In this document: positions 1-48,084 of the stretch, piece after piece | Numbering within the stretch: position 1 is the first letter of the stretch | How the letters are laid out: every line of letters begins with the position of its first letter | Source: Schmidtea nova | Taxonomy: Eukaryota | DNA length: 56,570 bases | Assembly: GCA_044892505.1 (NCBI GenBank) | Contig: CM097882.1 | Location: 255,316,001 to 255,372,570, forward strand | Reading direction: 5' to 3' | Made by a program: the position numbers and the translations under genes | The notes under the pieces: model-generated | What the model was told of the DNA's origin: nothing | Database searches by the model: none | What the model saw: the letters and a program-made list of their open reading frames with translations, nothing else

Positions 1-920
1 AGGGTTGATCCAAATGTTTCTCCATTTCTTCTCAATCTCTCTCTGATAACTTCTTTCACAAATATTTCGCTTTTGCCGGTGCGTTCCATTACCTTTTGAG
101 TTCGTGGTTCGTCTAATATCTTATCTACTAATAATTCATTAACAGGCATCTCTGGGTTTTTATAATTGATCGGTTCTTCGTCTTCATATAATTCTTCTCC
201 ATATTTACAATATTCGTTGTGTTTCAGGTATTCTCCTTCTTCTTTTGGTAATTGATATTGTATTCCACACTCTGAACATTCAGCGGTTGATTCATTTATT
301 GCATAAAAACCTTCTATTGCTAATCTGATACCCATCTTTTTATCTGCAAAGGTGTCAGTTCTCCCATTAAACTTATATTTTGGATCAATTTCTATGAATC
401 GTATCTTTGCTGGACCTGTTGAAGTTATCGTTACTATTTTGGGTTTTTCTTCTTCGTCGTTGTTCATTGTTGCTGGTTTTCTTGGTTTTTCGCATGCCTT
501 TAATACAAACTGGCATGTGGGTGAAAGTTTTCTATGTTCTGTTAGTGGATCATCGTTAATTCTCCAAGGTTCTATTTCAATTCTGCAAAATACACAGGTT
601 ACTTTATCGGGTTTCTCAATTGTCCCTGCAAAATACAACCCATCTTTGGCGAATTTTCTGTATTGCTTTTCATAGAAATTGTCTTGTTGTAAAAAGGTTA
701 TATATCTTCAGTTCTCATTTTTCAACGTTTCATCGATAATTTTGAATTTGCCATAATTCCTTTCCTTGGGAACATTCGATATTGTTCGTGTAAATTGGCA
801 ATAAATCAATTCTGAGGTAATTGGTGTTGACATCTTTTCTTTACCTCTTTTCATTAATTCGCATAAACTTTTGAATGATCTGTCATCTTCTCGTATTTTC
901 ACGATCTTCCTTTCAGTCAT
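1..920 (-). pseudogene. Inhibitor-of-apoptosis (IAP) gene, BIR + degenerate BIR + UBA-like; one in-frame TGA at 710-708; runs off the left edge
   Basis: Reading the 920..708 ORF through its TGA stays in frame to position 1: NEN*RYITF...KFAKDGLYFAGTIEKPDKVTCVFCRIEIEPWRINDDPLTEHRKLSPTCQFV (BIR with CxxC-H-C), then RTDTF...LAIEGFY...CSEC...H...C (second BIR-like), then VMERTGKSEIFVKEVIRERLRRNGETFGST (resembles the cIAP/XIAP UBA). No introns. Confidence 0.85.
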
Positions 921-1140
921 TGTATCTACAATATTTTCTCCGTTATATTTTCACAATTTTTGTTTTCTATATTTACAAAATTTTGATTTTTCTCATTTTT
1001 ATATTTGATTTTTTGGTTTTTCTCATTTTTATATTTCTTTTTAATTTTTATGTTTTTTGTGATTTTTTAATTTTATTTTGTACATTATGATACAGATACT
1101 TCATTATAATACAGACATATTTACACTTTTTCCATCTTCA

Positions 1141-2598
1141 CTACGGCTTCCTCACTTCGATAATCAGATACAGGATATTATTTACCAAATATAATGATTG
1201 TTCTGTGGTTAAATAATGTAATGCAATAAAACGTGGATTTCCTACAGCTACGTTGTAGTTTTCGATCGGCTTCCTATAAGCTGCTTCTACCTTCTTCAAG
1301 TTTGGCCTGAATACTTCCCGAACGTTGTTTTCCTTTGTTCCGATCATCATAGTTATATCGCAATCGTAGGGCCATTCTAACCAATCGTCATAATCTCCTT
1401 TACATATTTGAAAATATACAGATAAATGAGTTCCGGCTCCTAGTCCGTCTCCCGTTAGATATACTTTGAATCTGAGCTTGTAACCATGTTTCCAACTGTG
1501 ACAAGGTGGACTTGTCCATACACGTTGACCTCCTTCTCTTGCTAGTCTCAATTTCTCTGTAAATTCTGTGATTTTCCAATAGTAGGGTGTGACGGGTAGT
1601 TCTTCCATTGTTGGCAATATGCTTTCCAATCTTTGTTGGATTGTTGATATTTCTGCTATTTTCTGGTCTAATAGTATCATTTTTTGGATCATTTGTTCTC
1701 TTATTCTTTCAAAATTTCCTCTCGTATCCAACATCTCTTGTATCATGATTTTGTGAGATTTTATTTCTGTGTTGGCTTCTCCAATTACCAGTGCGGTTGC
1801 TCCAATAGCTTCCACAACGGTTCTCAAATGATTTACACTATTTTCATCTACATGCTTTTGTATTTCCTCTTTTGGTAATCTCACTTTGCAATTGAATAAT
1901 TTTAGTGGACATGCAGTAGGCTTCTTTTCGCATATTTCCCAATGTTCTTTTAGCTTCACGTTTTCTGCCATTCCACATTGATTACAATTACCTTCATACT
2001 CGTCACATACTTGCCCTTCTTCTATATTCCAATGCTCATCTTTTAACACTATCCAAGCGTCTGTTTCGTTGCAAAACTCACATATTTCCTGTCGTTGTTC
2101 ACACATTTCCTCATGACTGTCTTTGACTTTCTTCAACATTTCTTCTTCACACCACTTGCATTTGGCTTTCGTATCATCACAATTATAAAGGTGTTTGGCG
2201 ATCCATTTTATTGGCCCACTCCATACACATGGTTTATTTGGACAGGTTGTGGCTGCGTTCATTATTTCCCGATTCATTGCGATATCTGGTCTGGTTTGGT
2301 CAAATTGATCTATTATTGCTTCACCACATTCAGGACATAGCTTCTGTTTTGTTCGTATTATTTTCATCACGCAATTAGTGCATATTCGACATCCACATTC
2401 AGTTTGTCTGGGTTCTATCAATAAATTTCTACATACTTTGCATTTAAATCTTTCTTGAAATTCTGTTGGTTCTATCCGTTGTCTCTGTAGTATCTGATAT
2501 AGTTCAATCAATTCCTCTTGTTTCTGCTGATTCTCGGTCTGCATTCTAAAATAATTTATAATTTTTTCGTTTTGCTCTTTATACCAAGTTTTATTCAT
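1141..2598 (-). CDS. TNF receptor-associated factor (TRAF2/3/5-like), intronless
   Basis: RING CKVC..CGCRICTNC..CPEC; TRAF zinc fingers (CPNKPCVW..H..C; CPLKLFNC..H); coiled coil; C-terminal MATH/TRAF-C (YYWKITEF..GYKLRFKVYLTGDGLGAGTHLSVYFQICKGDYDDWLEWPY). First ATG at 2598 (ORF track uses GTG 2604). Confidence 0.92.
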   Translation of the reverse strand: MNKTWYKEQNEKIINYFRMQTENQQKQEELIELYQILQRQRIEPTEFQERFKCKVCRNLLIEPRQTECGCRICTNCVMKIIRTKQKLCPECGEAIIDQFDQTRPDIAMNREIMNAATTCPNKPCVWSGPIKWIAKHLYNCDDTKAKCKWCEEEMLKKVKDSHEEMCEQRQEICEFCNETDAWIVLKDEHWNIEEGQVCDEYEGNCNQCGMAENVKLKEHWEICEKKPTACPLKLFNCKVRLPKEEIQKHVDENSVNHLRTVVEAIGATALVIGEANTEIKSHKIMIQEMLDTRGNFERIREQMIQKMILLDQKIAEISTIQQRLESILPTMEELPVTPYYWKITEFTEKLRLAREGGQRVWTSPPCHSWKHGYKLRFKVYLTGDGLGAGTHLSVYFQICKGDYDDWLEWPYDCDITMMIGTKENNVREVFRPNLKKVEAAYRKPIENYNVAVGNPRFIALHYLTTEQSLYLVNNILYLIIEVRKP

Positions 2599-2638
2599 AT
2601 TCACATTTTTACATTTTATTTACACTGGTTTTAAATTT

Positions 2639-3274
2639 TTATAATGGTTCATCCCTTCCCGTCGAGTCAGGCTCTCGAACCGGTTCTGGAAAATTGTCTA
2701 ACCAGTTATACCATGCTCTAACTTCTTCTCGCGTCTCATTCAATCTTCTAATTTCGTTTGTTTGCCACTCCGTATGTCTTGTAAACCATTCAATTCTCTG
2801 GTCCTTTTGGATTATCATTTGTTGTTGTTCTTCCATTTTGGCAAGATATAATAAATTTCTGTTTACGCTCTCTGTTAACAAAGCTTGTTCGTTTTTCCAT
2901 TGTGCGTAGGCTTGATTCAACATCCTGCTTAATAATTCACATTGCGTTTTCCATGATAACTCTTGCGTCATTGTCTGCTGATAAACCATCGGAGCTGATA
3001 TTGATTGAGTCTGGCTATTTGTTGGTTGTTGATTTAATACGAATGTCGTTTGAATTGGGTTCATGGTTTCATCAAATAGTGGAATTTCGACTTGGTATAT
3101 CAGGTTTCTATCATCAATTGTTGGATTTTGCGTTTCATTTTCGATTACTGGGGTTTGCAGTGACCCTTCTCTTTCTCGTATATTGGTATCTTCTGGAAAC
3201 TGAGTTTGATTTAATGGTTCATTGAACGTAGGAACTGATGTTTGATAACTTTGACTCTCGTTGTTCGGATTCAT
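2639..3274 (-). CDS. Hypothetical protein, Q/N/T-rich N-terminus and coiled-coil-like C-half
   Basis: Uninterrupted ~211-codon ORF (first ATG 3274), same strand and compact spacing as its neighbours; no recognisable family. Confidence 0.6.
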   Translation of the reverse strand: MNPNNESQSYQTSVPTFNEPLNQTQFPEDTNIREREGSLQTPVIENETQNPTIDDRNLIYQVEIPLFDETMNPIQTTFVLNQQPTNSQTQSISAPMVYQQTMTQELSWKTQCELLSRMLNQAYAQWKNEQALLTESVNRNLLYLAKMEEQQQMIIQKDQRIEWFTRHTEWQTNEIRRLNETREEVRAWYNWLDNFPEPVREPDSTGRDEPL

Positions 3275-3428
3275 TTCTGTCAATAATTACACAATATTAT
3301 CATTTGTTTATCCCAGTTTTGAGGTATTCATTTTTTTTTTGGATTTTTAAATTTTTATTATACAAATATATTCTACTTTTATAATACAATATAATTTTAT
3401 ACACTATATACACTGTTCCTTCCACTGG

Positions 3429-5951
3429 TTACTCTGACAACTTGCGTTTCGACGACACTCTGATGTTCTCATCTGGCTCGTCGGTTAATATGACTTTTAT
3501 GTCTTCTTGGGTGACTTTTGAACCATTATGTGTTACTATCTGACATACGAGTGTTCTAAACATTTCTTGTGATGCTTTCTTTTTGTAAACACAGATTTTA
3601 TATTTTGTTTCTCGTTTTAATCCATTTATTCGGATTTCTCCTCCTTCTGCTCGTTGACATTTGACTGGATTATCTCCTTTAATTTGCAATTTTACGCTAC
3701 TCCAACATGCTTCTTCATTATCTGCTCCTTGTATTAATACTTGTACTGGTTTTCTCTTGTCATCCGCTTCCGTTCCTTTCAATGCTGACAGCATCAATAT
3801 CAGTAATATTATGTCTTTTATTCGAGTTTTATGTAGACATGCTGTTCGTTTTTCATAATTTGAAGTTTCTTGCTTGGGTTCATCACTTTTGTTCCCAATT
3901 TCCTCGTTATTGCTTTTTCCATCATCTTTCTCGTCTTTGTCATTGTTTCTGTTGATACTTTCATTGTCATCTTTCTTTGTTTTGTTGTTATTATTCTCTT
4001 CATCTTCATCGTCAGGCTCATTGTGATCATCAGCACCACCCTCGGTTCTGATTAAAATGTCGTCCTCGACATTTATTAATTTTATTATTTCCTCATATCT
4101 TTTGGCTATTTCATCCGCTTCGGCTTTTATATTTGCTCTCTTGGTTATTTCTTCTTTGGCGTTGTTCCAGCTTCGGTGAATTCTGCTTTCTTTTATATTT
4201 TCTTTCCATATGATGACTTGCTGATATAATTCATGTCTTTTAGATCCAATTCTTTCTTTTTCTTTTTTGTTGTTTGTAAATCTGAAATCAGGTCTTTGCA
4301 GCAATGCTTTAATCGTTTTACACATTTTCCATTTTCTTTTCATGGCTCTTTTCATTATCATATTTTCACCGTCTTCAAATCTGTCATTGACATTTATCAC
4401 TCCTTCGTGCGTAACTGGATGTAACCATTTAATCATTTTGGCTGTTGTTTCGTCTGCATCTTTGTTCACTGCATTTACTAATGGATTTGGATCTGAACTG
4501 AGTACTTCAATATCTTCTTCTGTAGCATTTGACATAATATATTTGATTATTTGATGGTTATTTGCTTGCACTGCATATGATAACACCGTTTCATTTTTAT
4601 CATCTCTTTCTTTAAAACTTGATCCGGTTCTCATCAGTTCTGCTATGAGTTTCTTGGATCCTCCTTTTTCAATTGCTACCATCAAGGGTGTTTGATCTTT
4701 CCAGTTTTTCGTGTTGGTATGTTGTTTACACTTTTCCATGAGTTTTATGATTTCAAACATTCTCTGTTCATTCCCACTTTTTATTGCGTGGTATAATGGT
4801 ATCTCATCTTTAAAACTGGTAATTGTAAGTAATATTGGTAATCTTTCTTTTATGGTATTCATCGCTTCTGTCGTTTCATTTCCTTTGGCATATTCCTCAA
4901 CCATTAAGCTTACTCCTCCCAATATTTCAAATAGATTTTTACTTTTTGACCATTCTGGCATAATTTCTTTGGTAATCTCAATGATCAATTCCATCTTTTT
5001 GCGGTGCTCCATTTTTACATCGTCAACTATCTTAGGTTGTTCAGATATTGTTGTTGACTGATTTACTTTTCTGCTCGTAGTTAATATACGATGTAGCCAA
5101 TCGTCATTTGCATTTTCTCGAAACATAAATACTTGTCCTTTTCTGGTCATTTCTTGATTTGATTGTTCTGTCATTGTTTCTCTTGTGCAATTCTCTTCAA
5201 TTTGGTGTTTCAACTTCATCGTATTCAAATCAATTACAGATCCTTTTAACAGTTTTGGTATTAAGTCTGTTCCAATAATGCATGATGCACCTAGTTGTTT
5301 TATTACTGTCAAATAAGTTGATATTTTCACATTTCTGTATTCGATGTCTGTCCATATTTTTCCAACGATATTGACAGATTCTTTGCTGCATGTTATTACG
5401 TCTACTGATGTTTTCTCGATGCATGACCATAACATTTCTGGTATCATATCGATATCTATTGCTGATATATTTGCGCCAGTGTCTATCATGGCGTCTACTT
5501 TCACACCATTAACTTCGATGTTAATTGTAAGTGTTGGTCCAGCTGGAGTTTTCATCATTGCAATTATCGTTGTTTCGGGATTATCTTCACCTCTCGCTTT
5601 TCTGGTCAACTCGCTTCCTGCAATTTTATCAACAGTTAATTTATTACTTGTTTCGATTTGTATTGGGGTTACACCGATTTCTATATCATCATCCAGCGAT
5701 TCTCCATCATATTTCAAGTGAAATGGTAAGTCAAACGGTAATCTCTCTTTTATCTCTTTGATCTTTGTTGTTAATGATACATTCATCTTTATTTCTTCTA
5801 GACTCGGAAACTGAATTTTCAATCTGCACATCTGTGGATCATCGTTTGTTTGTTCCAGTTGTTTCCATTTTCTCATGATGTCGTCAAATTGTGTTGAATA
5901 CCAAGGGCATAAACGTCTGCATTTCTCGATTTCTCTCACTATCAATCTCAT
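3429..5951 (-). CDS. Mosaic 840-aa protein: ubiquitin-like + retropepsin aspartic protease + ankyrin repeats + acidic linker + signal-peptide-like segment + FN3-like domain
   Basis: LKIQFPSLEEIKMNVSLTTKIKEIKERL..LKYDGESLDDD (UBL-like); IEVNGVKVDAMIDTGANISAI..CIIGTDLI (retropepsin); IPLYHAIKSG, DQTPLMVAIEKG, NETVLSYAVQAN (ankyrin); KDIILLILMLSALKGTEA; INGLKRETKYKICV (FN3-like). The frame is open upstream to 6047. Confidence 0.75.
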   Translation of the reverse strand: MRLIVREIEKCRRLCPWYSTQFDDIMRKWKQLEQTNDDPQMCRLKIQFPSLEEIKMNVSLTTKIKEIKERLPFDLPFHLKYDGESLDDDIEIGVTPIQIETSNKLTVDKIAGSELTRKARGEDNPETTIIAMMKTPAGPTLTINIEVNGVKVDAMIDTGANISAIDIDMIPEMLWSCIEKTSVDVITCSKESVNIVGKIWTDIEYRNVKISTYLTVIKQLGASCIIGTDLIPKLLKGSVIDLNTMKLKHQIEENCTRETMTEQSNQEMTRKGQVFMFRENANDDWLHRILTTSRKVNQSTTISEQPKIVDDVKMEHRKKMELIIEITKEIMPEWSKSKNLFEILGGVSLMVEEYAKGNETTEAMNTIKERLPILLTITSFKDEIPLYHAIKSGNEQRMFEIIKLMEKCKQHTNTKNWKDQTPLMVAIEKGGSKKLIAELMRTGSSFKERDDKNETVLSYAVQANNHQIIKYIMSNATEEDIEVLSSDPNPLVNAVNKDADETTAKMIKWLHPVTHEGVINVNDRFEDGENMIMKRAMKRKWKMCKTIKALLQRPDFRFTNNKKEKERIGSKRHELYQQVIIWKENIKESRIHRSWNNAKEEITKRANIKAEADEIAKRYEEIIKLINVEDDILIRTEGGADDHNEPDDEDEENNNNKTKKDDNESINRNNDKDEKDDGKSNNEEIGNKSDEPKQETSNYEKRTACLHKTRIKDIILLILMLSALKGTEADDKRKPVQVLIQGADNEEACWSSVKLQIKGDNPVKCQRAEGGEIRINGLKRETKYKICVYKKKASQEMFRTLVCQIVTHNGSKVTQEDIKVILTDEPDENIRVSSKRKLSE

Positions 5952-6050
5952 GTTTGATATATTTGCACTATTTTTTATAACCCATTTTAGTAATTCAGTT
6001 GTTGTTTCACATTGATTTCCTGCATTCTTGATTAGGTTATTGATTAATCA

Positions 6051-6529
6051 TTCGGTCTTTGACGTCTCTGTTTGTTTTGATCTTTCGAGCTTCGCTGATT
6101 TCCTTTTTTCTTCCGACTTTTGATTCATTTTCGTCATTTCTTCTATGGTAATGGTTAACAATCTTTGTGCCATTTGATCGTTATGGATTCATCCCATTTC
6201 TCGTCCATGCTACATGTATCATCATTGCTTCTTCTTTCTCTTCTTTGTCGGTTATATTTCTCCACAAACTTCTTCTTTTCTTCTCCCTCCATATCTTTTA
6301 CTGAAAATTCATATACATTTCCCTTTCTTTCAATTTCAACGTCTGATAATTCGGTTATCATTTCATTTACTTTTCCTTCGATATTCTGTTGTAGTTGCAT
6401 ATTCATTGTTATTACTTCTTTTTCTTCTTCCTGTAAATTATCTTCTACATTTGGACTGGTTATTTTCTGCTCTTCTTTTAATAAATTATCTTCTGAGTTT
6501 GCACTGGTAACTTTCTGATTCTCCTCCAT
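6051..6529 (-). pseudogene. E/K/N-rich low-complexity coding remnant, probably a disrupted N-terminal extension of the 5951..3429 ORF
   Basis: ORF 6529..6155 overlaps a second open stretch (6188..6051) that is in frame with the mosaic ORF and separated from it by one TGA (6050-6048). Confidence 0.4.
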
Positions 6530-6946
6530 TTTTCTTTATTTATCAGCTTTGTTTCTTTGTTATTTCCTTTCGTCGTTTCTTTATAGATTTGACTCTTTAT
6601 CTTTCGACTTTACGAACTTGGTTGGTTTGGTAATATTGCCAATTTGTGTTTAATATCGATTGTTGATCTCTCTTTTATCTTCAATTGGGTCTTCTTTGAT
6701 TTATTTTCTTTTACTTCTTTCCTTTTCAATTAGACTTCTTTTTCTTCTTTTCTTCTATATATACCTCTTCAATAACTGATTGATTTGACTATCTCTTGGC
6801 TTGGCTTTGATCTGTTGGACAATCTAAATAAAAATATCGCTTCTTCATCGACGCCATTTACCCCCCTTTTACTCTGAGCTCAGATTTTAAATTATCTATA
6901 TCTCGTAATAATTATCTATATGGTCGTATCAGTTATCTATACCCTG

Positions 6947-6983
<37 letters not shown>

Positions 6984-6985
6984 TA
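6947..6985. repeat. (AAT)n microsatellite
   Basis: Direct reading. Confidence 0.9.
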
Positions 6986-7211
6986 ACAATACTAATACTA
7001 TAATAACAGTATGATCATACTCATCTCGGCATTCAAAAAAAATGTCTTGTTCGTTATCTATTCATGGCCATTATTTTATTTCCTAAGTACTACACCTTAA
7101 GTATTCGCGTTCAATGTTTTTCTCTGTCATAACAAAATTTTTTCTGCGCAGTTTTATTTAATTCTATCTCTCAAACGTTTTCCTAAATTTCTCAACAATA
7201 TCCACAAACAT

Positions 7212-7614
7212 TGGACTCTCAAAGTCTCTCACATACATGAACTCTCAAAGTTTATCAATTATCTGGACTCTCAAAGTCTCTCCCAGAGCGCTCAATTATC
7301 TGGACTCTCAAAGTCTCTTAATGGACTCTCAAAGTCTCTCAATGGACTCTCAAAGTCTCTCAATGGACTCTCAAAGTCTCTCAATGGACTCTCAAAGTCT
7401 CTCAATGGACTCTCAAAGTCTCTCAATGGACTCTCAAAGTCTCTCAATGGACTCTCAAAGTCTCTCAATGGACTCTCAAAGTCTCTCAATGGACTCTCAA
7501 AGTCTCTCAATGGACTCTCAAAGTCTCTCAATGGACTCTCAAAGTCTCTCAATGGACTCTCAAAGTCTCTTACTGGACTCTCAAAGTCTCTTACTGAACT
7601 CTCAAAGTTTCTCA
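7212..7614. repeat. 21-bp minisatellite (ATGGACTCTCAAAGTCTCTCA)
   Basis: 11 perfect units at 7321-7551, variant units at 7300, 7552, 7573 and 7594, and degenerate copies back to ~7212. Confidence 0.97.
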
Positions 7615-8652
7615 ATTATCTCGGCCGTCTTCAATTGTTCTCTTTATGCTATTTAATCACTCGTTTCCCTATTCTCAAATTTTTAAATAAATTCGCTGTT
7701 GCTGACTGTTTTTCTCAAATTGTTCTACTACTTCTCAATTACGAATTTATTCCTTAACTACCATGGTAGAATCTTTTCTTGTTATATTATCATCTACTAT
7801 TATCATCGAAATTCACTTTTTACTCTTTTGACTTGCTAAAATCTGCATCTGATTTTCTCAGCAACTTTCTCTTTACTCATGTTACTGTCTTCTACCTCAG
7901 TGTACCAATCATGCCTTGGCAAACTGGTGTATAAGATGAACATTACGGGTTTGACCCTTTCACCTAATTCAAAATCGTAAAATAATCGCATCAACTAGTT
8001 TCGCCATTTGTGATGATCAGTCACAAACGAAATTTCGCCAACATATGCGATGGATATCCTATTCTACTCTCTTTCCTCAAGGTGATCAAGTTTTTCCCCG
8101 TTTGTTGTCTGCTAATTTTTAACAACAAAATATTGACGTACTATCTTTTGATAGCTCTGTTAAAACTTGGCGTACTATCTTTTGATAGCTCAGTTATGAA
8201 TTTGTGAACTATTTTCTCGTTTCGACTCAGGCACTCATTTATTTCGGAAGATTCTCCCTATAAAATCAACTTCTATAACTCTACTTATTGCTCGTCCTAA
8301 TACATACATATTTATATAAAAATGATCAGTATAATAATGATAATCAATATAATAATGATAATAAGGAAGATTTATAGTAATAGAATTCGGATCGATATAA
8401 TAATGATGAGGAGGATTTATAAGAATAATAATAAAGAAAATTTGAAAAGAACAGAAAAATAACTTTGTCACAAATTCCCATTTTCCTAATGTTTAATTTT
8501 TCGGCATTAGCCGTTACTTGTTATGTTTTACGCGCATCTCAGTTATTAATTACCTAGTGTTCTTTGTTTAGTTAGTTTTCACGACGGTTTGGAGTACTGG
8601 ATGATCGACGAAGTTCAACACGACTAAAACGTTTTATTTCGAACGGCATTCT

Positions 8653-9135
8653 TTACGAACAAAATACGACGATTTTGTCTTCAATCGTCTGTTTGCAGAT
8701 TACGCATCTCTTTATTTCTCCATAACACGGCTGGCAATAACACAAATGCACACATGGCATGAAAAAAATGTTCGCTTCTCTTAGTCGACAAATATAACAT
8801 CTTTCGAACGAATCGATCTGTTGATTCATCGATCTCTCCAGCCTGTCCATGATTTTATCGATTTTACCAATCCATTCCTGTATTTTCAGATCGAAATTCG
8901 GATTATTCAGTCGCAATCGTTGTAATTCATAAACCGTTTCTAACGAAATATCGTTTGTTGCTCCCACAATTCCTGCAATCACTACCAGATTCTCAGGTTG
9001 TGGTCCAGGACTCAACAATAATTCATCTTTTATTCCATTTACTCGTTCGAGTTTCTCGCTCAACACCTGTAATGGGTCATTTTTAAAATCGAAAAACAAC
9101 TCGATTCGTAGTAAAATATGCTCAATCGATTCCAT
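8653..9135 (-). CDS. Small protein with C-terminal RING-HC finger of the IAP/MDM2 type (putative E3 ubiquitin ligase)
   Basis: CYICRLREANIFFMPCVHLCYCQPCYGEIKRCVICKQTIEDKIVVFCS at the extreme C-terminus; ATG start, intronless. Confidence 0.85.
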   Translation of the reverse strand: MESIEHILLRIELFFDFKNDPLQVLSEKLERVNGIKDELLLSPGPQPENLVVIAGIVGATNDISLETVYELQRLRLNNPNFDLKIQEWIGKIDKIMDRLERSMNQQIDSFERCYICRLREANIFFMPCVHLCYCQPCYGEIKRCVICKQTIEDKIVVFCS

Positions 9136-10280
9136 CTAAAATATTCATGATGACTGGTGTTTATAACTTTTTGAATTAACCATTCATTATAATTTGAACG
9201 AAAATAAATAATAAAAACTTCAACATCTATGTACACGAAATTTTTTTTTTACAATTTTTATATATTTTTGTATTTTTTTTCAAAACTACACTAACAGAGT
9301 ATTCAGCCATTTTTATACATATATTTTTATATTTTTATATTTTTATATTTTTATATTTTTATATTTTTAACTAACAGAATATTCAGCCATTTTTATACAT
9401 ATATTTTTATATTTTTATATTTTTTTTATATTTTTATATTTTTATAATTTTCTCCATTCGTCCATATTCCATATTTTTCGAATAATATAAATAAAATAAT
9501 CAGCCATTATGTACATAATTTTTATGATTTTTTATATATTTTTTTTTATATATACTAATATTTTCTACATAAAAAATAATTAAACATTTATTTACACAAT
9601 TTTTTCATGATTTTTACACTTTTTATCAATTTTAAAATAATTATATTTTTATTCACAGTATTCGCAACCTTTTGGTAATTTTTCGTTTACTGAAAGCAAT
9701 TTTTATATACTCGAATATTTATTTTCTAAGTGATTTGCGTGAACTCTATCCCGTATCGTATGATCATATAACATTTCCTTTTATCAGGTTCCTAATTTTG
9801 TGCATCTCAAAATTTTCGTATTTGCGCTAAGTCTCACGTTTTCTTGTCTGATTCTGTATCATTATATTCGTTTTTAAGATGTTGTTAAATATTATTTTAT
9901 GATTTCTAAAGATTTTAGAGTTATTCCCGATTTCGATTTCTGAATTGAGTTGCGATCATCATTCCAATATCACCATGCATCATTCCGACTTCAACAAGCT
10001 AATCTTTCCCAACATTCAAACTTCAAACTCATTAGACTATATCATTCATTCTCCACCGGTATTATTATATTAATTAAAACAAACAATTCACGCATTGCTC
10101 CATTTTCGCCGTTATTTCTTTTAGACCCGATACTTTCCATGTCCCCTTTTGCCAACAAAACAAAATTACAGGGGTCATACCTCAGTCATTCTCAATCAAC
10201 CAAAATAACACCAATATCGTCAGTAATAATAATGACATCAACAGTACACTCATGATAATAACAGTAACAATAATAATACC

Positions 10281-10345
<65 letters not shown>
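10281..10345. repeat. (AAT)n microsatellite
   Basis: Direct reading; lies just before an assembly gap. Confidence 0.9.
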
Positions 10346-10346
<1 letters not shown>

Positions 10347-10380
10347 TTTAATAATTATACCAAGATGCTAGTAGTACTAC

Positions 10381-10516
10381 NNNNNNNNNNNNNNNNNNNN
10401 NNNNNNNNNNNNNNNNNNNNNNNNNNNNNNNNNNNNNNNNNNNNNNNNNNNNNNNNNNNNNNNNNNNNNNNNNNNNNNNNNNNNNNNNNNNNNNNNNNNN
10501 NNNNNNNNNNNNNNNT
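10381..10516. other. Assembly gap (N run)
   Basis: Ns. Confidence 1.
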
Positions 10517-11179
10517 TACCCAATATGTTTTCTTATATATTATTACGTAATAATTATAATAAGAATATAATAACTCAGTCTTATTTTTATATTATTTGAC
10601 CAAATTACGGTTTCTACTGTTAAAATGATAATAATAATAATTCTGATATCTATACGATCATTAATACTCAGTGTTACTGCTTTCTTGGATCAAAATTTCG
10701 TAATTTCTTCAATTTTTTAATTTCTTAGCGGCGATTTTCTACACTTTTTGCGGATTCCGGTGTCATATTCTATCTTTCGAGGTATTTTCCACTTGCCGGT
10801 GCTGCGTACTCACTTTCTACGCTCTATGGACGTTATTTGAACCATTTTACGATTATTGGTTGTTCGTGGGATTTATTTGTCGCGATTTGGTATTTTGACT
10901 ATTTTACCCGTGATTTTCTTAGACTTTTGACCCATTCCGGCTCAACTTTTTATCCTATGCTATGTTTGATGTTTATTCATATTAAAGACACTTATTCTAC
11001 GCTCTGTAGTTATTATTCGTTCTCAATTTCGATCATTGACTGCTCCTGGGGCTTAAAAATCGCGTTTTGGCTTTCAATTTTATCATTTTCGCGGTGATTC
11101 TGTTTGAAATTTTCTCGATTTTTTCCGATTTTTCGATTTAAATCTCGTTTAAAATGCTATTTATGATTCCAATCATAAT

Positions 11180-11443
11180 NNNNNNNNNNNNNNNNNNNNN
11201 NNNNNNNNNNNNNNNNNNNNNNNNNNNNNNNNNNNNNNNNNNNNNNNNNNNNNNNNNNNNNNNNNNNNNNNNNNNNNNNNNNNNNNNNNNNNNNNNNNNN
11301 NNNNNNNNNNNNNNNNNNNNNNNNNNNNNNNNNNNNNNNNNNNNNNNNNNNNNNNNNNNNNNNNNNNNNNNNNNNNNNNNNNNNNNNNNNNNNNNNNNNN
11401 NNNNNNNNNNNNNNNNNNNNNNNNNNNNNNNNNNNNNNNNNNN
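11180..11443. other. Assembly gap (N run)
   Basis: Ns. Confidence 1.
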
Positions 11444-11605
11444 ATCAAACATAATTTTCCGCTGTTTGTGTCAAAGTTTTATTTAACAGTTTGTTGATAT
11501 TTTATGAAAACTTTCATTAAATCTCGCGCGAACTCGTTTAGTTGTTTTTCGATTTTTTCAAGCAAAACAAACTCAAATCCCGGCTGAGCCCCCAAATTTT
11601 TATAT

Positions 11606-11841
11606 GGTGGGTTGTTGATCGTCAATATGACCTTGACGTTTCTATGGCTCTCATCAACAACTCAACACATAAAACATTTAAACTACCATCTTGTTACCCG
11701 TCACTATGTAACGTTGGTACTGTAACAAGTGGGTGGGTATTCGCAATCAGTGAGCGTCGTCAATACGAAACTATGATTGACCGAATATCTCCTGGGTCCA
11801 AGGGCTACCGATAGAAGGTTTAATGCCCATTTTGTCCCTCC
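11606..11841 (-). repeat. Conserved block A, copy 1 (inverted relative to 25881-26116 and 26426-26648)
   Basis: Reverse complement matches GGAGGGACAAAATGGGCAT...GATCAACAACCCACC with few substitutions. Confidence 0.95.
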
Positions 11842-12899
11842 TTTAATGATTGATCTATAAGCATTCAACAAAATTTTATCGGAAATTCAACATAAACACT
11901 CTACACAACTATAAATTCATTATTGCATCCAACTAAATTATTTCGAGCATCAAAAACACTAATATAACCCTATTTTTACCAATATTGCATTTTATGATAA
12001 TTAATACATAAAATATTATATTTTTATAGAAAAATTTTAATCTGCATTTGAAATTTAAGAAAAATTTTAATTATTACCGTAATTTAATCCAGTTAAGAAA
12101 TAATAAAAATAAAATTTCCGTTTGTTTAAAATTGCTAATTTAATCAAAAGGACAAATTTACTCAATTTAAAAATCATATTAATTTTAAATGTAATTTTCT
12201 GAATTTTTCAATAAATTGATAAATTAACAATTTCTATAGTTCAGATCAACAAGAAATGGACCTCTCCAGAAACTACGAAACCAGAGGAAAATTCTCCCAC
12301 CCCAAACGGGTCAATCCAATTAGAACTCGAGCTCCTATGAAGCAAAATAGCCCGCTCTACCAACCAAGTAAAATTTTGATTATTTCAGAATTATAATTTA
12401 TTTTGAACAATTTTAGAAAATTTCTTGAAGAGAATATGTTGGAACTGGCCCTTCAAGCATTGTAAACCGGAAAAAATCCTTGCCGGGGACTCTTATCCCT
12501 CAAACTGAATTTTTATCAATAAATCTTTAGATAAAAATTTTTTTCGTCTTTACTCTTTTTCGTTTGAGTTTTTATTATTTTTATGAAATTTTTGTAAATT
12601 AAAAATAAACTGTAATGTAAATGGCCTATTTGGCTGGGTAAATTCAATTTTATATGGTAGGTTTGAATGATAGAAATTTTTGTATGGTTTTTCTGGATGT
12701 ATGTTGCCGACTAACATAACTGTGTAGAATTTTCAGTATGGTTTGCTTGTGTGTATATAACTATTGAATGCTAATAAATGGTACTGTGTATGTGTGTATA
12801 TTGTATTTTAAATATATGTTGCTTGTGTATTAGTATGGGAAATGTTATTGAATGAAATGGATGTAATATTTTGCAAATAGGGATGCATTATGATTTTTG

Positions 12900-13030
12900 N
12901 NNNNNNNNNNNNNNNNNNNNNNNNNNNNNNNNNNNNNNNNNNNNNNNNNNNNNNNNNNNNNNNNNNNNNNNNNNNNNNNNNNNNNNNNNNNNNNNNNNNN
13001 NNNNNNNNNNNNNNNNNNNNNNNNNNNNNN
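12900..13030. other. Assembly gap (N run)
   Basis: Ns. Confidence 1.
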
Positions 13031-13907
13031 NAATTTTTATGAAGTAATATAATAATAAAATTTCCAATTTTTATATTATAAATTTTTATAATACTTTTTA
13101 TAAATTTTAAATTTATAATTTTATGAAAATAATATAATAATAAAATTTCTAGTTTTTATAATATATATTTTTATATTCGAATTTTTATATTTTAAGTATA
13201 TATATATATATATATAGTAAAAAATTTTTCCTATAAAATTTTAAATTTTGGATTTTTTAAAATGATAAAATTTTCAATATAATAATAACATTTTCGATTT
13301 AAAATTTTTATGGGTTTCAATATAAGTTTTGATTTATAAATTCTTAGGAATTTTATAAAATGACAAAATCTTTTATATCATAACAATATTCGGAGAATTT
13401 TTGGTTTACAATTTTTCATTATAAAAATTTTTTCAATATAATAAAAAGTAAATTTTTATTTTTTGATCGAAACGAAATCCACATCATAATAAATTTCTCA
13501 TCCATAGATTTCGAAATCTAAATAAGCATTTAATCTAAAAATTTTTATATGCTAAATAAAAATAAAATAAAAAATAAGTTATAAATTTTTCAACGAAATT
13601 TTTTCGACATCGAGTAAAGTTAATTTCGGTTTCCTTGTTATTCCATCGGATTTGAGCATTAATTCGAACGATTTACTTTTTGATATCGGTTTTTAATATT
13701 CTGGCTCTTGGATGAGAAGAAAATTATTGTGAAGGTGAAGGCGAAGGACGAGTAAAATGTTTTTGCATAATTATTTTTCCTAATGGAAAAGATGTTGCTG
13801 GAGAGATTGGTTTTCACGTTTTCATGTAGTATTAATTTTCAATATATTAAAAATTATAAATTCGGATAAGCTACATTTATTATAAATAAATATCATTAAT
13901 ATAACAC

Positions 13908-14085
13908 CTTGCCTTGGGCCAAGCCACTGTTCCCCAGTTGGGATGAAGTGATCTTGGATGGTTAGGCTATTCACCTGAACTCGGACAATGGACTGATCGA
14001 TTTACGTATCGAACCAGCGATCCGCTCAGGCTACTTCCACCCGATCGGCGCAAGGCCAGACACAGGCTTCAGGGGGTAAGGAAGT
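13908..14085 (-). repeat. GC-rich conserved block B, copy 1
   Basis: Inverted copy at 17838-18015; much higher GC than the flanks and by eye better conserved than them. Confidence 0.95.
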
Positions 14086-16404
14086 AAAAAAAAAATTAAT
14101 ATTTTTTATTTATTTATTCTCTTTATAATATATATTATTGTGACTTTAAACGGCAATTTGCGACAAACAAAAATTAAAAAATTAAAAGTAAATATTTTAA
14201 TATTCAATAACGATAGCATAATAATAATAATATAAAAATTATAAAAACATTATCGGTACGGGGAAATCGAACAGGCATGGTGTTCGATGACCCCGCGCCA
14301 ACAAAAGAATAAGACTTACGAATAAATTTAGAGGTCTTCTTGCATAAAATTTTAAAAAATTTTTTTTTCACAAATTCTGAATAGATTCCATTTTGATGGC
14401 GGTATATATACCGTCGATTTTCGTCACCTTCACCAGTGTAATAAAACAAATTGTTCTAGAATTTTCCATTTAATTTTTTCTAAATTAATTCTAATGATTT
14501 TCCGAAAATTAAATCCATATTTTTGTGTAATAATTTTTTACAAAACACAAATAATTTATTTTAATCCAAAATTTTTATTTTTGAATCGAAATTTGTTCGA
14601 TTTAATTTAATTTACGATATTTCAATCAATATTAATTCTTTTTATTGTTAATGTGAAATATTTTGCTAACATCACAATTTTCGGCTAAAATTCTGTTAAT
14701 TTTTTCTGCATGAAGGTTTTATAACACAATTCCGTTGTTTATGGGTATTTTCAATGGGTTTTCCGCCTTATTCTAACTTTTAAACGTTCTTCTTTTGATG
14801 GTATTTGATTTTTCTCGAGGTTTCAATGTAAGAGCTCTCAGACTCACAGCTAGCGCGTTCTCTACTGGTTGATGTGTTGTGAGTTCACTTCACCTTTTGT
14901 TGTTTTTCACTTAATTGCTTGGATTTTTAATGGGTTTTTGGGTTAAAACTGAATCTTGCGCGCTCTCTACCTATGAGGTTATCGTTTGTTTAAAACAATT
15001 TGTGGTTTTTGCCCAACATTTCCTAGAATTAGACAAATTATTTTATATATACATAACCATCATTTTATAATTTAACCCTTCCAAAAATAATCCTTATAAA
15101 CCTTCCTTGCAAAATACTACATCCATTCCATTCAATAACATCATCCATATCTAATAACACATAAAAAAACTTATTTATCTATAATACACACACTACATCA
15201 TTTAATTCAATAACACCTATCTGCATCATACATCCAGAAATTCTCATAAGCACTCAATATAACCCATTTATCACTAAATTATTTATTTCATCCAGCATAC
15301 AATCACATGCAACCATCACAATAGGAGAATTTATCTCAAATGGACAATAGTTTATACGCACGCATTTGTAGCCACCACATTCCACTTCACCAAAACGTAT
15401 CACATACCTCATCCATACATTTTCATCATAAATCAGAATCCTTTACTTCACAATTTCCACAGATCAATGTAACCAACAGTTCATATTCGCTTTTCACATT
15501 ATACCATAAACATTTAATGATATCACACGAATAATCTACATTGACTAATTTATCAAATCTTTAGTATTCAAACAGAACTAACGAAATGCTTCGCGCCTAT
15601 TTATTAGCCATTTTAAATAGAAATTTTTTTTATTTTTAATCACATCTACGTAACTGTATAAGATACATGAAATTTTGAAAAATTTGAGAAAATTGTAAAA
15701 TTTTATTAACTACAAAATTTTTGAATCACCACTACTACATGTAATATCTCTTGCATCGACATAACGATTCAAAATGAAAAATTAAATATCCATCAAAGAG
15801 AACCAAGCAACATGTAGATCCATTAATTCCTTGGAGCTGGGCGTGAATTCAAATAGATTGATCCGTCGTTATAAGATGACTTGGCTGTATAAAATCGACG
15901 CGTAAAATATGACATAATCATATTACGAACTTACATTAAATTGTTTTGAGGGAAATAATTGACGAACTCGAGGATATCCGTGAAAGAAAATTGAACTGTC
16001 TCGGTTGATTCTGAGAATACGAAGCCTAAAGTTCAACAAGGTGGATTGAAATTATAAATAAGGAAAAGTAAATAATACTAAATTCAATTACTCGAATGAG
16101 AAGAAGCGATTGGGAATGTTTGAATTTTCTGCCTAAAAACTAACACCTAAAATCAATAAAATATAATATAGGAAACAATATTACTATACTGGGATTCGAC
16201 CAATTAGATTTCATTAATTTTGGTTTCCGTCTGGCAATATAGAGTTTTGAAAAAGTTAAATGCAAATTATCTTGGAAAAAAACGAAAAAGGCGTGTAAGA
16301 ATTAAATTCCTAATGTAATATTTCACTTAGAATTTTAAAATAAAATAACATTTTAATTTTAGGTAGAAATTTAAAGGTAAAATTAATATAATATTGGTAG
16401 AACC

Positions 16405-16672
16405 GTAACCGTTGCCAAGTTGTCAAGGCCTCGGCAAATTTTTGAAAATTAAAAAATTAAAGTTTTAGTAAAATTATAAATAGATACATAAAGCAAGATA
16501 GACATTAGATATAGGGGAACAATAAAGTTTAGTTAAATTTACTAACACAATAATATAGAAATTTAAAAAATCAGGAAAATAATAGTAGTTTAGTCAAAAT
16601 CAACAGAAATCAAATACCCCGAATATATGTGTTGATAAAAGATTATTCGACCCCAAAATTGAGATGGTGATA
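16405..16672 (+). repeat. Diverged direct repeat of 24454-24723
   Basis: Shared GTAACCGTTG..TTGTCAAGGCCTCG, TAAAGCAAGATAGACATTAG and TCAAATACCCCGAAT in the same order. Confidence 0.85.
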
Positions 16673-17837
16673 TTATGTTTGAGTATGAGCTTGAGAATAA
16701 ACTAAAATTTGTGAATATGTTTGTGTCTGTTGATAATATAATGTATAGTGATTGTGTTGGGCAAAAACTACAAATTGTTTTAATAAAGCGATAACCCCAT
16801 AGGTAGAGAGTGCGCAAGATTCCATTTTAACCCAAGCAACCATTAAAAATCCAAACGATTAAGTGGAAAACACCAAAAGGTGAAGTGGACTCAAAACACA
16901 TCAAGCAGTAGAGAACGCGCTAGATGTGAGTCTGAAAGCCCTTACACTGAAACCTCGAGAAAAATCAAATGCCATCAAAAGAAGAACGTTTGAAAATTAG
17001 AATAGGCGGAAAACCCATTGAAAATACTCATAAAAAACGAAATTGTGTTATAAAACCTTCAGTGCAGTAAAAATTAAAAAAATTTTTTAGCCGAAAATTG
17101 TGATTTTATCAAAATATTTCACATTAACAATAAAAAGAACTAATATTGATAGAAATATCGTAAATTAAATCAAATCGAACAAATTTCGATTCAAAAATAA
17201 AAATTTTAAATTAAAATAAATTATTTGTGTTTTATAAAAAATTATTACACAAAAATATGGATTTAATTTTCGGAAAATCATTAGAATTAAATTAGAAAAA
17301 TTAAAAAGAAAATTCTGGAACAATTTGTTTTACTACACTAGTGAAGGTAACGCAAAATCTATGGTATATATACGGCCATCAAAATGGCAATAATCAGAAT
17401 TGGTGGAAGTTTTTGTCGTAATTCAAAATTTTGCAGAATTTAAATTTTTAATTTGTGAAAAATTTGTAACCAGAGAAGTATTACTTGATCCTGAAATATT
17501 ATCCCGCATCGTGGAACATTAATGTAAGGAGTTATTTTTATTTATTTTTTTGGATGAGATCATCAGTCGTCATGCCCGTTGATCATCTCATGCCCAGTAT
17601 TTTGGTTATCTTTATATTTATTTATTTATTTATTTATTATTGATTTAGTTTATTTATATGAAATATCAATTTTTTAGATTGAATTAATTATTCCATTGAA
17701 TTATTACTTATTGAAATTTATACGAAAATGTTAATTTTATATGTTTTTATCAAGATACTGTCACAAATACCCATATTAGATTAATATTTATTTTAAAATA
17801 TAGGCTGTAGAAAGAGAAGAATAACTAATTTTTTTTT

Positions 17838-18015
17838 GCTTCCATACCCCCTGAAACCTGTTTCTGGCCTTGTGCCGAGCGGGTGGAAGTAGCCTGAGCG
17901 GATCGCTGGTTCGATTCGTAATCGATCAGCCCATATTTCCGAGTCCAGGTGAATAGCCCAAACATCCATGATCACTTCATCCCAACTGGGGAACAGTGGC
18001 TTGGCCAAGAGCAAG
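17838..18015 (+). repeat. GC-rich conserved block B, copy 2
   Basis: Reverse complement of 13908-14085. Confidence 0.95.
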
Positions 18016-18377
18016 TTGTTATACTAATGATATTTGATTTATAATAATGTAGTTTATCTGAATTTATAATTCTAACATATTCATAATTAAAGATTGATAC
18101 CACATATAAACGTAAGGACGATTTTCTCCAGTAATGCCTTTTCCATTATGAAAAATAATTTGTGCAAGAATATTTTACTCGTCGTTCGCCTTCACTCTCA
18201 CAACAACTGTCATCTTATCCGAAAACGCAAGTAAAATGGAAGCTAATATTGAAAAGAGAATCGTTTGAAATAATGCTCAAAGCTGGTATAATGATCACGA
18301 AATGAAACGAATTGTGAAGACAAGTATTGATTGATCTGAATTAAACCTCATTTATAGTCTAAATAATTTTCTCCAGT

Positions 18378-18541
18378 GAACCTTGTTTTCGGGAGCCTGA
18401 AGTTCCTAAGTAAAGCGTCTCGAAAAATTCACGCGCGCTTTAGTTGGGAAATTCATGCTCGAACGAAACCGAAGTTCATTTTACTCGATGTCGAAAAATA
18501 TTCATTGAAGAATTTATGACTTATTTTATTTTTATTCTTAT
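18378..18541 (+). repeat. 164-bp perfect direct repeat of 24890-25053
   Basis: No differences found by eye from GAACCTTGTTTTCGGGAGCC to TTTATTCTTAT. Confidence 0.95.
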
Positions 18542-18673
18542 TCAGTATATAAAAAAATTTTTAGATTGAATTCTTATTTGGATTGCGAAATTTGTGGATA
18601 AAAATTTATTATTTCGTTTTGATCAAAAAATAAAAACTTACTTTTATTATATTGCAAAAATTTTTATAATGAA

Positions 18674-18980
18674 CTAGTAAATCAAAAAAAAATTCTTTTT
18701 TCAAATCCATGCTTTATGCGAGCAGAACTCCACTTGGCTGAGAAATTTTTTTTTGTTATATTTTGTAAAGGGAAAATTACATTTTTCGTGTGTCCTCAAA
18801 AAAAATTTTTAAAAAAAATTTGTTTTCAAATTTTTTTCCATTTCCATGTATTGTCACCGGAAGTGAGCAAGTGTGCAAAATTTGAAGTGAATCGGTTGAG
18901 AGAAAAGCACTAAAAAATTGATTTGTAATTTTGTGGCACACACATATATATATAGAAAGCAACCTTATATAAAGCATGGA
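18674..18980 (-). mobile_element. Non-autonomous Helitron/Helentron-like element
   Basis: Minus strand starts TC and ends CTAG; 12-bp inverted repeat TCCATGCTTTAT (18706-18717) / ATAAAGCATGGA (18969-18980); (CA)/(TA) microsatellite; no TSD. The empty T-rich site is seen in the paralogous arm near 13405-13420. Confidence 0.65.
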
Positions 18981-19474
18981 AAAATTGTAAACCAAAAAAT
19001 TTTCCTAAGAATTTATAAATCAAAACTTATATTGAAACCCATAAAAATTGTAAATCGAGAATATTATTAATATATTGAAAATTTTTATCATCTTGTAAAA
19101 TTCCAAATTCGAGATTTTATAGGAAAATTTTGCGATTAATATATATATATATATATATATTAAAATATTAAAATTTGAATTCAAAATGTATATTATACAA
19201 ATTTAGAAATTTTATTATTTTCATAAAATTATAAATTTAAAAATTTATAAAAATCATAATAAAAATATTATTATTATTTTAATTCTGAAAATATTTTATA
19301 TATAAATATATATTTCTTTATAAAATACCCCCCACGATATCTCAAAATCATAATGCATCCCTATTTGCTAAAACTTACATCCATTTCATTCATTAGTAAC
19401 GTTCACATATAACACCACATAAAAATCCATTCATTCATCAACACACATACTATATCGTTTCACTCAATAGTACC

Positions 19475-22400
19475 CAGCGGCGGAACTACTGGACGCAGGA
19501 CCCTGCGTTGCGGGGGGGCCTACCAGCTATAGGGGGCCCTCATATAAAAAAAATTATACCATCAATAATATTTATACTATAAAACTCTTTTCCGCAGGTC
19601 TAGTGGGCCCTAAAATATAAAACTTGGTTAAAAAAAATGTCATCCATCGTATTAAAATATATTGTTCAAAAATTTATTTTTGTATTGGAGTGCGTAGTTT
19701 ACATTTAAACGAAAAGTTTTAACCTTTTTAAAATTGCATACGCAATTGAGAAATAAAGTACGATTATCAGCTGCGAACTGCCAGATTTTATTGTATAGTT
19801 AATTTTTATACCGTTATGTTGTGTTTGTGTATGAATTAGACAATTAGACTGAATTCGGTAAAAGTAATAATTTGTTGCGTATAAATTTTTTTTAAACTGT
19901 AAGAAGTTCTTCAATTTATAAGTTCTTAGTTGCATATTCAATATTTTTAAAATATAAACAATATTATTTGTTATGTCGTTGCATATACAAATTAACTTTT
20001 AAATGTATGTTCTCATTTTCAATTTTATATTAAATCTTCCGTTGTATTAAGTTAACTTTTCATTTCTTATTTTATCTGAATTACTAGTGTCCAATTTATT
20101 TAATCGTGTTACGAATAATAAAGTATTGTTGCACGAGAGTTTATTACTTCACTGATATATTTAATAAAAGGTAATTAATAAATTTGTAATAATTAAAAAT
20201 TTTACAACAGGTACTGAATTTATAAATTTGTAATAATTTAGATTTTGACTCATAATAATGGAAAAGAAATTAAGTAGTACAAGCGGTGCAGCAAAAAGAA
20301 GAAAGTTAAAAGAAACAAAAGCTACTTTAGCTAAATTGCCGAAGCTAACAACGTTTTTGAAACCAATCGAAAAGCGAGCGGAAACGGAAGTGGAAAGTCA
20401 GAACTCTGCAGAAGTGGTATGTATAAATCAGTCAGTAGAACATGATGATATCGAAGAAAACATTGCTACTGGTAATAAAAATGTGAACGAAGAAGATGTG
20501 AATAGGTCTCCGAGAAACCACCGAAATGAAGACAAGGAAGATTCAAACTCTGATACGAATGACGCCATTGAACAAATTAATTTAGAAAAATCAAGTGAAT
20601 TATTTTCTACTGACATTGCAAATTTTCATGGTAAAATACTAACAAAAGATATTAAGAAAATAATTGTATTATCTGAATCGTGTCGGCCAAAAGGTCCTTT
20701 TATACGCAGCCCCTTGCAAGAAAACCGTAGGTTTTCCAAGGAATATTTTAAAACTACCACAAAATATGGATCTATTTTTTTTTTTTTTTTCTATTTGCTA
20801 TTCCCCAAAACTTGATGCCGTTTATTGCGAGCCTTGTTGGCTTTTCTCAGAAGAACGAAAAGCAAAGGATAACTGGCGTGAGCATGGTGTCAGAGATTGG
20901 CGTGGTCTTTCTAAAATAATTATAATTCACGAAAATAGTCAACAACATATATTTGCTTGTTGCATTTATGAAAAATGGCGACATAATGAAACAATTGATA
21001 AAAATATAGAAGAACAAATACGATACGAATCAAAATTTTGGGTGCAAGTCTTAGAGCGGATAGTAAATATAACATTAGCACTTTGTAAAAATTCTTTGGC
21101 TTTTCGTGGTCATCGTGAATCATTTGACAATGAATATAATGGTAATTTTTTAACCCAAGTTCAACTTTTAGCTAAATATGATAATTTTATGAAGCAAGTT
21201 TTGAGTATGCCAAATGGATCTATAAAATATTTAAGCCATCAAATTCAAAATGAAGTCATACATTGCCTTGCAACACATTTAAAAGCCACTCTTACTGCTG
21301 ATATTAATAGTTCACCTTTTTATTCAATTATAATGGATACAACACAAGATATTACTAAAAGAGATCAGCTCAGTCAAGTATTTAGATACGTAAAAATTAT
21401 TAAAAATGAAAAAGATGAAGCCACATCAATTGAAATTAAAGAAGTTTTCTTGGGATTCACGGAAATATATAACCACACTGCTGCTGGACTACATGAAGAA
21501 ATTTTAAATCTGTTAGAAAAACATCATATAAAATTAAGTAACTGCAGGGGTCAAGGTTATGATGGTGCGAACGTCATGAGTGGGATATACAATGGGGTTC
21601 AGGCCCTTTTTAAGAAAAATCAACCCAATGCTATGTATATGCATTGCGCAGCTCATAATTTAAATCTTGTTATTAACGATGCGGTTAAATGTTGTGTTGA
21701 AGTTGCTTCATTTTTTGTAATGCTAGAAGATGTGTATTCATTTTTCGGAAATAGCATAAACAGGTGGGATCTACTATCCAAATTTACAGGAGAATCACAA
21801 ATAACATTAAAAAGGTTAAATCCAACGCGATGGGCAGGACGATATACTTCTCTTTTCGCCGTTAAAATTCGCTTTCTTGATATAATGAAAGCTCTTTCCG
21901 AGATATCAATAACAAGTACAAAACGTGAAGAACGCGAAGAAGCAGTACGAATACAAAAAAATATGAGCAGTTTCGAATTTGTTTTTTTATGCGTGCTTTT
22001 GTCTAAAATCCTTAATGAGGTACATATACCATCAAAATTGCTGCAAACTAAAAATTTAGATCTTATGACAGCTTCAGGTTCTCTAGAAAATGCCAGCAAA
22101 AATTTAAAACAATATAGAAAGATGTTTGATTCAGCAAACTTGAAGCGGTAGAAATAGCGACTACGTGGCAGATTCCTGCAATATTTGTTCAAAAAAGAAG
22201 AAAAATTGTGAAAAGGCATTTTGACGAATTATCTACAGATCACCGTTTTGATAGTAGTGAGGAAATTTTTCGCATCAATATTTTTATAAAAATTTTGGAC
22301 GTCGTTATCAACCAACTCGACAATAGATTTAAAGGAATGCAAGAAGTGGTACAATTATTTTCCTGCATCCATCCAAATAAATTAATGGTAATGAAAGAAC

Positions 22401-29467: not shown

Positions 29468-31029
<1,562 letters not shown>

Positions 31030-38141: not shown

Positions 38142-39727
<1,586 letters not shown>

Positions 39728-48073: not shown

Positions 48074-48084
48074 TGGCGACCACG
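48074..48084 (+). promoter_or_regulatory. Primer-binding site TGGCGACCACG (tRNA-Arg-like)
   Basis: Abuts the 5' LTR; complementary to the 3' end of tRNA-Arg(TCG) types ending CGTGGTCG-CCA (from memory). Confidence 0.75.

Follow-up and report, generated by a model that had tools for sequence, protein, structure and literature searches.

Does the DNA at the left edge of a 56,570-nt stretch of Schmidtea nova (GCA_044892505.1, contig CM097882.1, positions 255,316,001 to 255,372,570; hereafter the window) hold a hidden IAP gene, and if so, does that gene belong to the host or to something mobile? We addressed the reading frame, the domains that it encodes, the genes that accompany it, and the alternative explanations. 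The features at the centre of the argument are collected in Table 1.

Table 1. Features of the interrupted IAP gene and of the gene row to which it belongs (window coordinates)
Feature	Position	Strand	Basis
C-terminal helical region at the usual IAP UBA position, cut by the window edge	3..143	-	predicted fold
BIR2, divergent	192..389	-	90-BIR profile, Atlas, VIA fold search of AlphaFold model
BIR1, canonical CX2CX16HX6C	498..707	-	Pfam, PDB BIR chains, Foldseek
Sole in-frame TGA, one codon ahead of the invariant BIR Arg	708..710	-	translation, homolog alignment
IAP 5' stub, 70 aa, no domain	711..920	-	translation, Pfam
Full-length, intact, intronless TRAF: RING, TRAF zinc fingers, MATH	1141..2604	-	Pfam
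211-aa ORF, no family match	2639..3274	-	Pfam, NCBIfam
840-aa ORF: SUMO/ubiquitin-like, retropepsin, ankyrins, acidic tract, hydrophobic stretch, FN3-like tail	3429..5951	-	Pfam, Atlas
Purine-rich, coding-like leader, including a 124-aa ORF (6529-6155)	6048..6860	-	composition, stop count
21-bp tandem array, 15 copies, 97% matches	7301..7616	.	repeat search
160-aa ORF with IAP-type C-terminal RING, no BIR	8653..9135	-	Pfam zf-C3HC4_3, E 2.2e-11

A single stop interrupts the reading frame

The minus-strand frame from 920 to 3 comprises 306 codons with exactly one stop, the TGA at 710-708. Upstream of it lies the stub, which begins with an ATG, and downstream are 235 open codons up to the window edge, where the frame leaves the window at base 3. 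About 24 stops would be expected from base composition, and the probability of 235 codons without a stop is approximately 3e-9; the remaining five frames of 1..920 contain 7-26 stops each. The preliminary description had noted that the ORF track shows the stub only, with the frame open beyond the TGA, and this is confirmed.

The position of the stop is equally telling. The codon after the TGA aligns to the BIR entry Arg, which is invariant in 88 of the 88 homolog BIRs with a residue there, confirming that the stop sits just before the BIR entry motif. The stub carries a Glu at -3 from this Arg, the commonest residue at that position (18 of the 53 homolog BIRs scored), and because this fits the BIR entry pattern, the stub is part of the same frame as the BIRs. 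The column of the TGA itself is variable, with 14 different residues among homolog BIRs and the commonest at 22%, so the homologs do not single out the original codon, for which CGA had been suggested. The next in-frame ATG is at 467 (residue 152), behind BIR1, and a restart of translation would therefore still lose the canonical BIR. Frame and BIR evidence together support an IAP gene behind a single nonsense codon, and we hold this interrupted gene to be a real feature with high confidence.

Two BIR domains, one canonical and one divergent

With the stop represented as X, the read-through protein matches Pfam PF00653 in BIR1 at E 1.1e-17 (64.7 bits, cut-off 22.9), and 707..480 alone matches Pfam BIR at E 2e-16, in agreement with the canonical BIR described previously. 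The condition named in advance as a refutation, the absence of a BIR HMM hit for 707..500, therefore does not hold. The ligands of BIR1 are C109, C112, H129, and C136, with a spacing of x2-x16-x6. Sequence matches in the PDB comprise the BIRs of NAIP, DIAP1, survivin, ML-IAP, cIAP, and XIAP, and in Foldseek single-BIR chains match BIR1 at an r.m.s.d. of about 1.8 Å.

The candidate zinc ligands of BIR2 are C215, C218, H234, and C238, spaced x2-x15-x3, such that the segment between His and Cys is shortened. BIR2 has no match to Pfam PF00653 at E ≤ 10, the only Pfam match being zf-C3HC at E 0.09, and a PDB sequence search with it returned nothing relevant. For a custom profile, 90 BIRs were cut from 18 of the 150 homologs listed, each with 4-7 BIRs and chosen for having at least five matched stretches. 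On this profile BIR2 scores 15.0 bits, a value reached by none of 1000 shuffles (best shuffle 8.8), and a profile search of the read-through protein yields two BIR regions. The three Atlas rows listed for BIR2 are all BIR clusters at 0.87-0.89, with 176-182 features in common, which we treat as a lead only. In the AlphaFold model, pLDDT is 81-92 across BIR2, and the best 14 rows of a VIA search with the modeled domain are all BIR chains (Z 5.9-7.0), as exemplified by cIAP2 BIR1 (Z 7.0, r.m.s.d. 2.5, 63 aligned). The VIA support is not fully independent, because BIR proteins made up the alignment from which the model derives. We accept BIR2, on its sequence profile and predicted structure, as a divergent BIR with a BIR fold and non-canonical ligand spacing. 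The divergent second BIR claimed at the outset is thus supported by profile, Atlas, and VIA, even without a Pfam match.

The C-terminal helical region

A cIAP-like UBA had also been proposed for the end of the frame. To the eye, the C-terminal 47 residues resemble the cIAP UBA, and three helices are predicted in them with a mean pLDDT of 80. Pfam searches of 3-185 and 3-410 gave no UBA match, and PDB sequence searches with the C-terminal region gave nothing significant. On three custom profiles, applied to a domain that is cut by the edge, 2 of 1000, 27 of 2000, and 307 of 2000 shuffles scored at or above the real sequence; the first result is not counted, because the alignment covers the part of the profile after the UBA and is in the wrong register. 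VIA placed UBA-type chains at Z 3.8 for the edge-cut region, tied with unrelated bundles, and with the last 66 residues folded alone there was no UBA-titled entry among the VIA and Foldseek matches listed. The helical region at the expected position stands, and its identity as a cIAP-like UBA is plausible by position and helix content only, since no significant sequence, profile, or fold match was obtained.

The IAP gene is the last of a same-strand row

The preliminary description handled the IAP as a stand-alone gene; instead, it is a member of a mobile-element-like same-strand cassette. The IAP is last in an intronless row that runs from the IAP-type RING through the 21-bp array, the leader, the 840-aa ORF, the 211-aa ORF, and the TRAF, with five adjacent ORFs separated by short spacers or none.

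TRAF genes are normally multi-exon. In the TRAF of the cassette, MATH is matched by Pfam at E 8.9e-23, and zf-TRAF and RING are marginal or below the cut-off. Among 4067 candidates of near length, 16 matched, all of them distant (23-34% identity) and TRAF3/5-type, with 15 of the 16 named and from fish. The 211-aa ORF is a probable coiled coil, as judged by eye. The 840-aa ORF matches PF11976 weakly (E 0.015), RVP at E 1.1e-5, and Ank_2 at E 2.3e-10; its retropepsin carries a DTG motif and finds its best PDB match in Ddi1, albeit a weak one (E 0.09). A hydrophobic stretch followed by an FN3-like tail ends this ORF (3432-3830, minus strand), the tail being an Atlas lead at 0.83 with no Pfam match. 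Only one of 6315 near-length candidates matched the 840-aa protein, and that match is confined to the ankyrins. Stops number 21, 12, and 14 in the three frames of the leader (about 6860-6048).

None of the cassette proteins searched yielded a close homolog, in a scope of near-length candidates for the IAP, the 840-aa ORF, and the TRAF, outside which long polyproteins fall. For the post-stop IAP, none of 95 near-length candidates matched, and the best IAP homologs among the matches listed have 28-46% identity. NCBIfam searches gave only a sub-threshold clan AA protease match and one spurious match. A predicted complex of three copies of the TRAF (residues 250-340) with the BIR1-BIR2 piece, computed without alignments, scored 0.14, the mark being 0.34, and counts neither for nor against an interaction. 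A literature search over titles and opening abstracts found no description of this cassette layout.

The row also has a composition of its own. Coding-strand A lies at 0.41-0.48 for the IAP and its four upstream ORFs, compared with 0.31-0.375 in the actin, hAT, and two Gypsy pol genes of the window. In the RING ORF it is 0.335, and the membership of this ORF is less sure because of the lower A content, though it lies on the same strand. The A skew of the spacer between TRAF and IAP is 0.41 against a background median of 0.10, and 13 of 130 background windows reach 0.30; two other cassette spacers have a skew of only 0.23 and 0.25. Similar AT-rich short repeats, which may be low complexity, occur upstream of the IAP (964-1060) and of the RING ORF (9244-9540).

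Surroundings of the cassette

The window as a whole is animal scaffold sequence, rich in AT and gapped by four N runs, and it contains two actin genes, a hAT transposase, and two Gypsy elements. Such a scaffold, with its short-intron actin, is compatible with a triclad host. The actin genes (29537-31022 and 38174-39659) are inverted and 100% identical over 1486 nt, including an intron of roughly 60 nt; the pair may result from recent duplication, gene conversion, or an assembly effect. The hAT-type transposase (20258-22825, plus strand) consists of three consecutive ORF pieces, with matches to DUF4371 and the hAT dimerisation domain in the two that were scanned. Spanning 47897-56424 is a pair of Gypsy-type elements, apparently nested, that lie on opposite strands and have terminal repeats interleaved with one another. 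Repeats include a 78-bp tandem array (45074-46456, 17.8 copies, 94% matches), a long degenerate inverted-repeat nest centred near 15900 (12846-19395) that probably represents foldback or nested DNA-transposon remnants, and a short repeat family (11604-11887 and 25880-26650) with inverted and direct copies that are 85-95% alike.

A Burro-type retroelement as the likely carrier

The row of intronless apoptosis and ubiquitin genes most resembles Burro cargo, and for this reason the feature is probably a decaying mobile-element copy, not a hidden host gene. The row appears to be one mobile unit because the TRAF is intronless and strand and A-rich composition are common to the row, whereas the host actin has an intron. 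We therefore favor, with a probability of about 0.6, a reading in which the IAP is host-derived, intronless accessory cargo of a large Burro-type retroelement, in a copy inactivated by a nonsense mutation.

Burro elements, according to the portions of the published descriptions available to us, are giant Gypsy-like LTR retrotransposons of about 30 kb with a domain inventory like that of the cassette. In the accessible part of PMC6431247, planarian Burro elements are listed with MATH_TRAF_C, BIR, ankyrin, SUMO-like PF11976, BCL2, env, and tandem repeats, a Dugesia tigrina Burro with MATH on an upstream accessory ORF, and D. japonica Burro with decaying copies that contain stops. MATH/TRAF, BIR, ankyrin, a SUMO-like domain (PF11976, E 0.015), RING, retropepsin, and tandem repeats are all present in the cassette row, as in Burro elements; a Pfam scan of the cassette ORFs gave no BCL2 or env match. 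An excerpt of PMC13465017 cites Lee et al. 2026 for the Burro1 B-IAP, a BIR+RING protein reported to guard stem cells from caspase-mediated apoptosis. Further background comes from the available part of PMC11410931.

There are differences in layout. As far as the partial descriptions go, Burro1 encodes MATH, SUMO-like, BCL2, env, protease, and RT within a single polyprotein of 4,873 aa, whereas the cassette has separate ORFs in another order; the protease of Burro1 is followed by dUTPase and RT, that of the cassette by ankyrins. Compared with Burro/GYPSM1 by published domain descriptions, which were available in part, and not by sequence, the cassette is distinguished by a full-length TRAF and a two-BIR IAP. 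A motif search of 1..13500, where the cassette is cut by the left edge, found no gag, CCHC knuckle, or YxDD motif, and with tblastn nothing in 1..20000 resembled the RT, RNase H, or integrase of the Gypsy proteins encoded in the window. Elsewhere in the window, in which only one side of the element can fall, 1..11200 has no LTR-like second copy. None of the three BURRO1 primers given in the part of PMC8532177 available to us, where their place in the element is not stated, matches with up to three mismatches. Burro membership is therefore unproven, because no gag, RT, integrase, or LTR was found, the domains are in separate ORFs, and there is no close relative. If present, the replication genes and the 3' LTR would sit beyond the left edge.

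In intact copies of such an element, the IAP would block caspases via BIR1 and, if a RING follows beyond the left edge, would also ubiquitinate them. The same death and NF-κB pathways would be targets of the TRAF and the stand-alone RING, and cargo of this kind would let cells with an active element survive. In the present copy, translation would end after 70 aa, before any BIR, to give a domain-less peptide.

Age and state of the copy

Seven cassette ORF pieces contain one stop in 2125 codons. Given that 4.6-6.2% of substitutions are nonsense, this implies a neutral divergence of about 0.25-0.34% (95% range 0.006-1.9%), for ORFs that were chosen for being open and with the leader (6860-6048) left out. 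The leader is coding-like yet has stops in every frame, and the IAP stop may therefore not be the sole lesion. The IAP copy is probably young and inactivated. The earlier claim of recent inactivation is plausible at this low divergence, but the stops in the leader and a possible assembly error weigh against a simple reading of the event.

Alternative explanations

The cassette could be part of a large integrated DNA virus or of another non-retro mobile element, in which the captured IAP, TRAF, RING, and Ddi1-like protease block apoptosis and the stop reflects decay after integration. Compact intronless genes and AT-rich spacers would suit such an origin, IAPs are common in invertebrate DNA viruses, 30 BFVD matches were obtained at E ≤ 0.001, and viral proteins make up 63% of the few recorded members in the top Atlas cluster for BIR2. 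However, these BFVD and Atlas matches reflect the common BIR fold at 13-42% identity and not kinship, the cassette ORFs that were scanned with Pfam include no viral core gene, and the five adjacent ORFs are all on one strand with a uniform A bias, which makes a viral origin unlikely. A host locus has much the same low standing. Here, the row would consist of clustered immune and apoptosis genes, retrocopied or in tandem, and the IAP would be a processed pseudogene comparable to the many intronless IAPs of bivalves. UBL plus retropepsin is the layout of host Ddi1, to which the protease has its weak PDB match, and A-rich tracts follow some ORFs. In hard clam, 51 of 159 IAPs are intronless (PMC7831173), and most retrocopies are untranscribed (PMC7831173, PMC8917759), according to the parts of these sources available to us. 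Independent retrocopies scatter randomly, however, and four gene families head-to-tail within 6 kb on one strand, with a composition unlike actin, point to a single unit.

Two further explanations concern the stop and not its carrier. The animal may have an intact gene, with the TGA introduced by faulty sequencing or assembly or representing a single allele where repeat copies were collapsed. This would be compatible with a Burro-type identity of the element, the scaffold is a gapped draft with four N runs, and there is just the one stop in the seven ORF pieces; but the leader shows apparent further lesions, and the hAT transposase is also in pieces, indicating that decayed elements are normal here. 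We give an error little credence. Least probable is a bypass of the stop in vivo, through a splice into the AG dinucleotide that directly follows it, leaky read-through, or recoding of the TGA. Retroelements do use read-through, and a leaky stop context has C after TGA; here the base after TGA is A. An intron is disfavored because the BIR entry pattern continues in frame through the codons ahead of the stop. The pyrimidine-tract score at the candidate acceptor, 0.30, compared with 0.35 at the actin intron, whose coordinates are off by a few bases, is uninformative. Recoding is countered by TGG, which occurs 77 times in 5341 codons of eleven long ORFs, and by two ORFs that end in TGA, although this argument is partly circular because the ORFs were defined with TGA as a stop. 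Rfam yielded no matches in the window.

Significance

There is nothing unusual in an IAP copy broken by a nonsense codon as such; it is of value because it marks a retroelement-like cassette that assembles regulators of apoptosis and ubiquitin. The Burro1 IAP is reported, in the excerpt of PMC13465017, to support planarian regeneration. If a relative differed in layout and had intact as well as broken copies, selection on the IAP could be compared with that on replication genes, which bears on whether IAP cargo serves the element or the host.

A more far-reaching but doubtful possibility is that the cassette is part of a giant mobile element that is not Burro1 and has not been described before, with a whole module for death-receptor and ubiquitin control carried as separate genes. 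That module would tentatively comprise a full-length TRAF, an IAP with two BIRs of which one is of a new, shortened type, an IAP RING in an ORF of its own, and a Ddi1-like UBL-retropepsin-ankyrin protein with a membrane or secreted FN3-like tail. If so, intact siblings would rewire host TNF/NF-κB and caspase control, and the loss of the IAP from copy to copy would be a natural test of its benefit to the element versus the host.

Comparison with known IAP systems

The two tandem BIRs of the cassette IAP are shared with IAPs of the DIAP1 type, BIR-BIR-(UBA)-RING, and with those of baculoviruses and nudiviruses. Among single-domain PDB sequence matches, the read-through frame scores best with DIAP1 BIR1 (E 2.5e-8), with survivin and ML-IAP narrowly behind. 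Unlike DIAP1-type IAPs, the cassette protein has a BIR2 with a shortened His-Cys segment and no Pfam match, and its gene is interrupted and has no RING within the window; in homologs, linkers of 95-237 aa follow the last BIR. Vertebrate cIAP1/2 likewise have BIRs followed by a helical region at the UBA position, though they contain three BIRs and not two. By analogy, an IAP with a TRAF next to it resembles the pairing of TRAF2 with cIAP; binding of TRAF1/2 by type I BIRs is stated in the available portion of PMC8917759. The retroposed IAPs of bivalves, as far as the partly available sources describe them, are also intronless and probably silent, whereas the cassette IAP is embedded in a multi-gene row on one strand.
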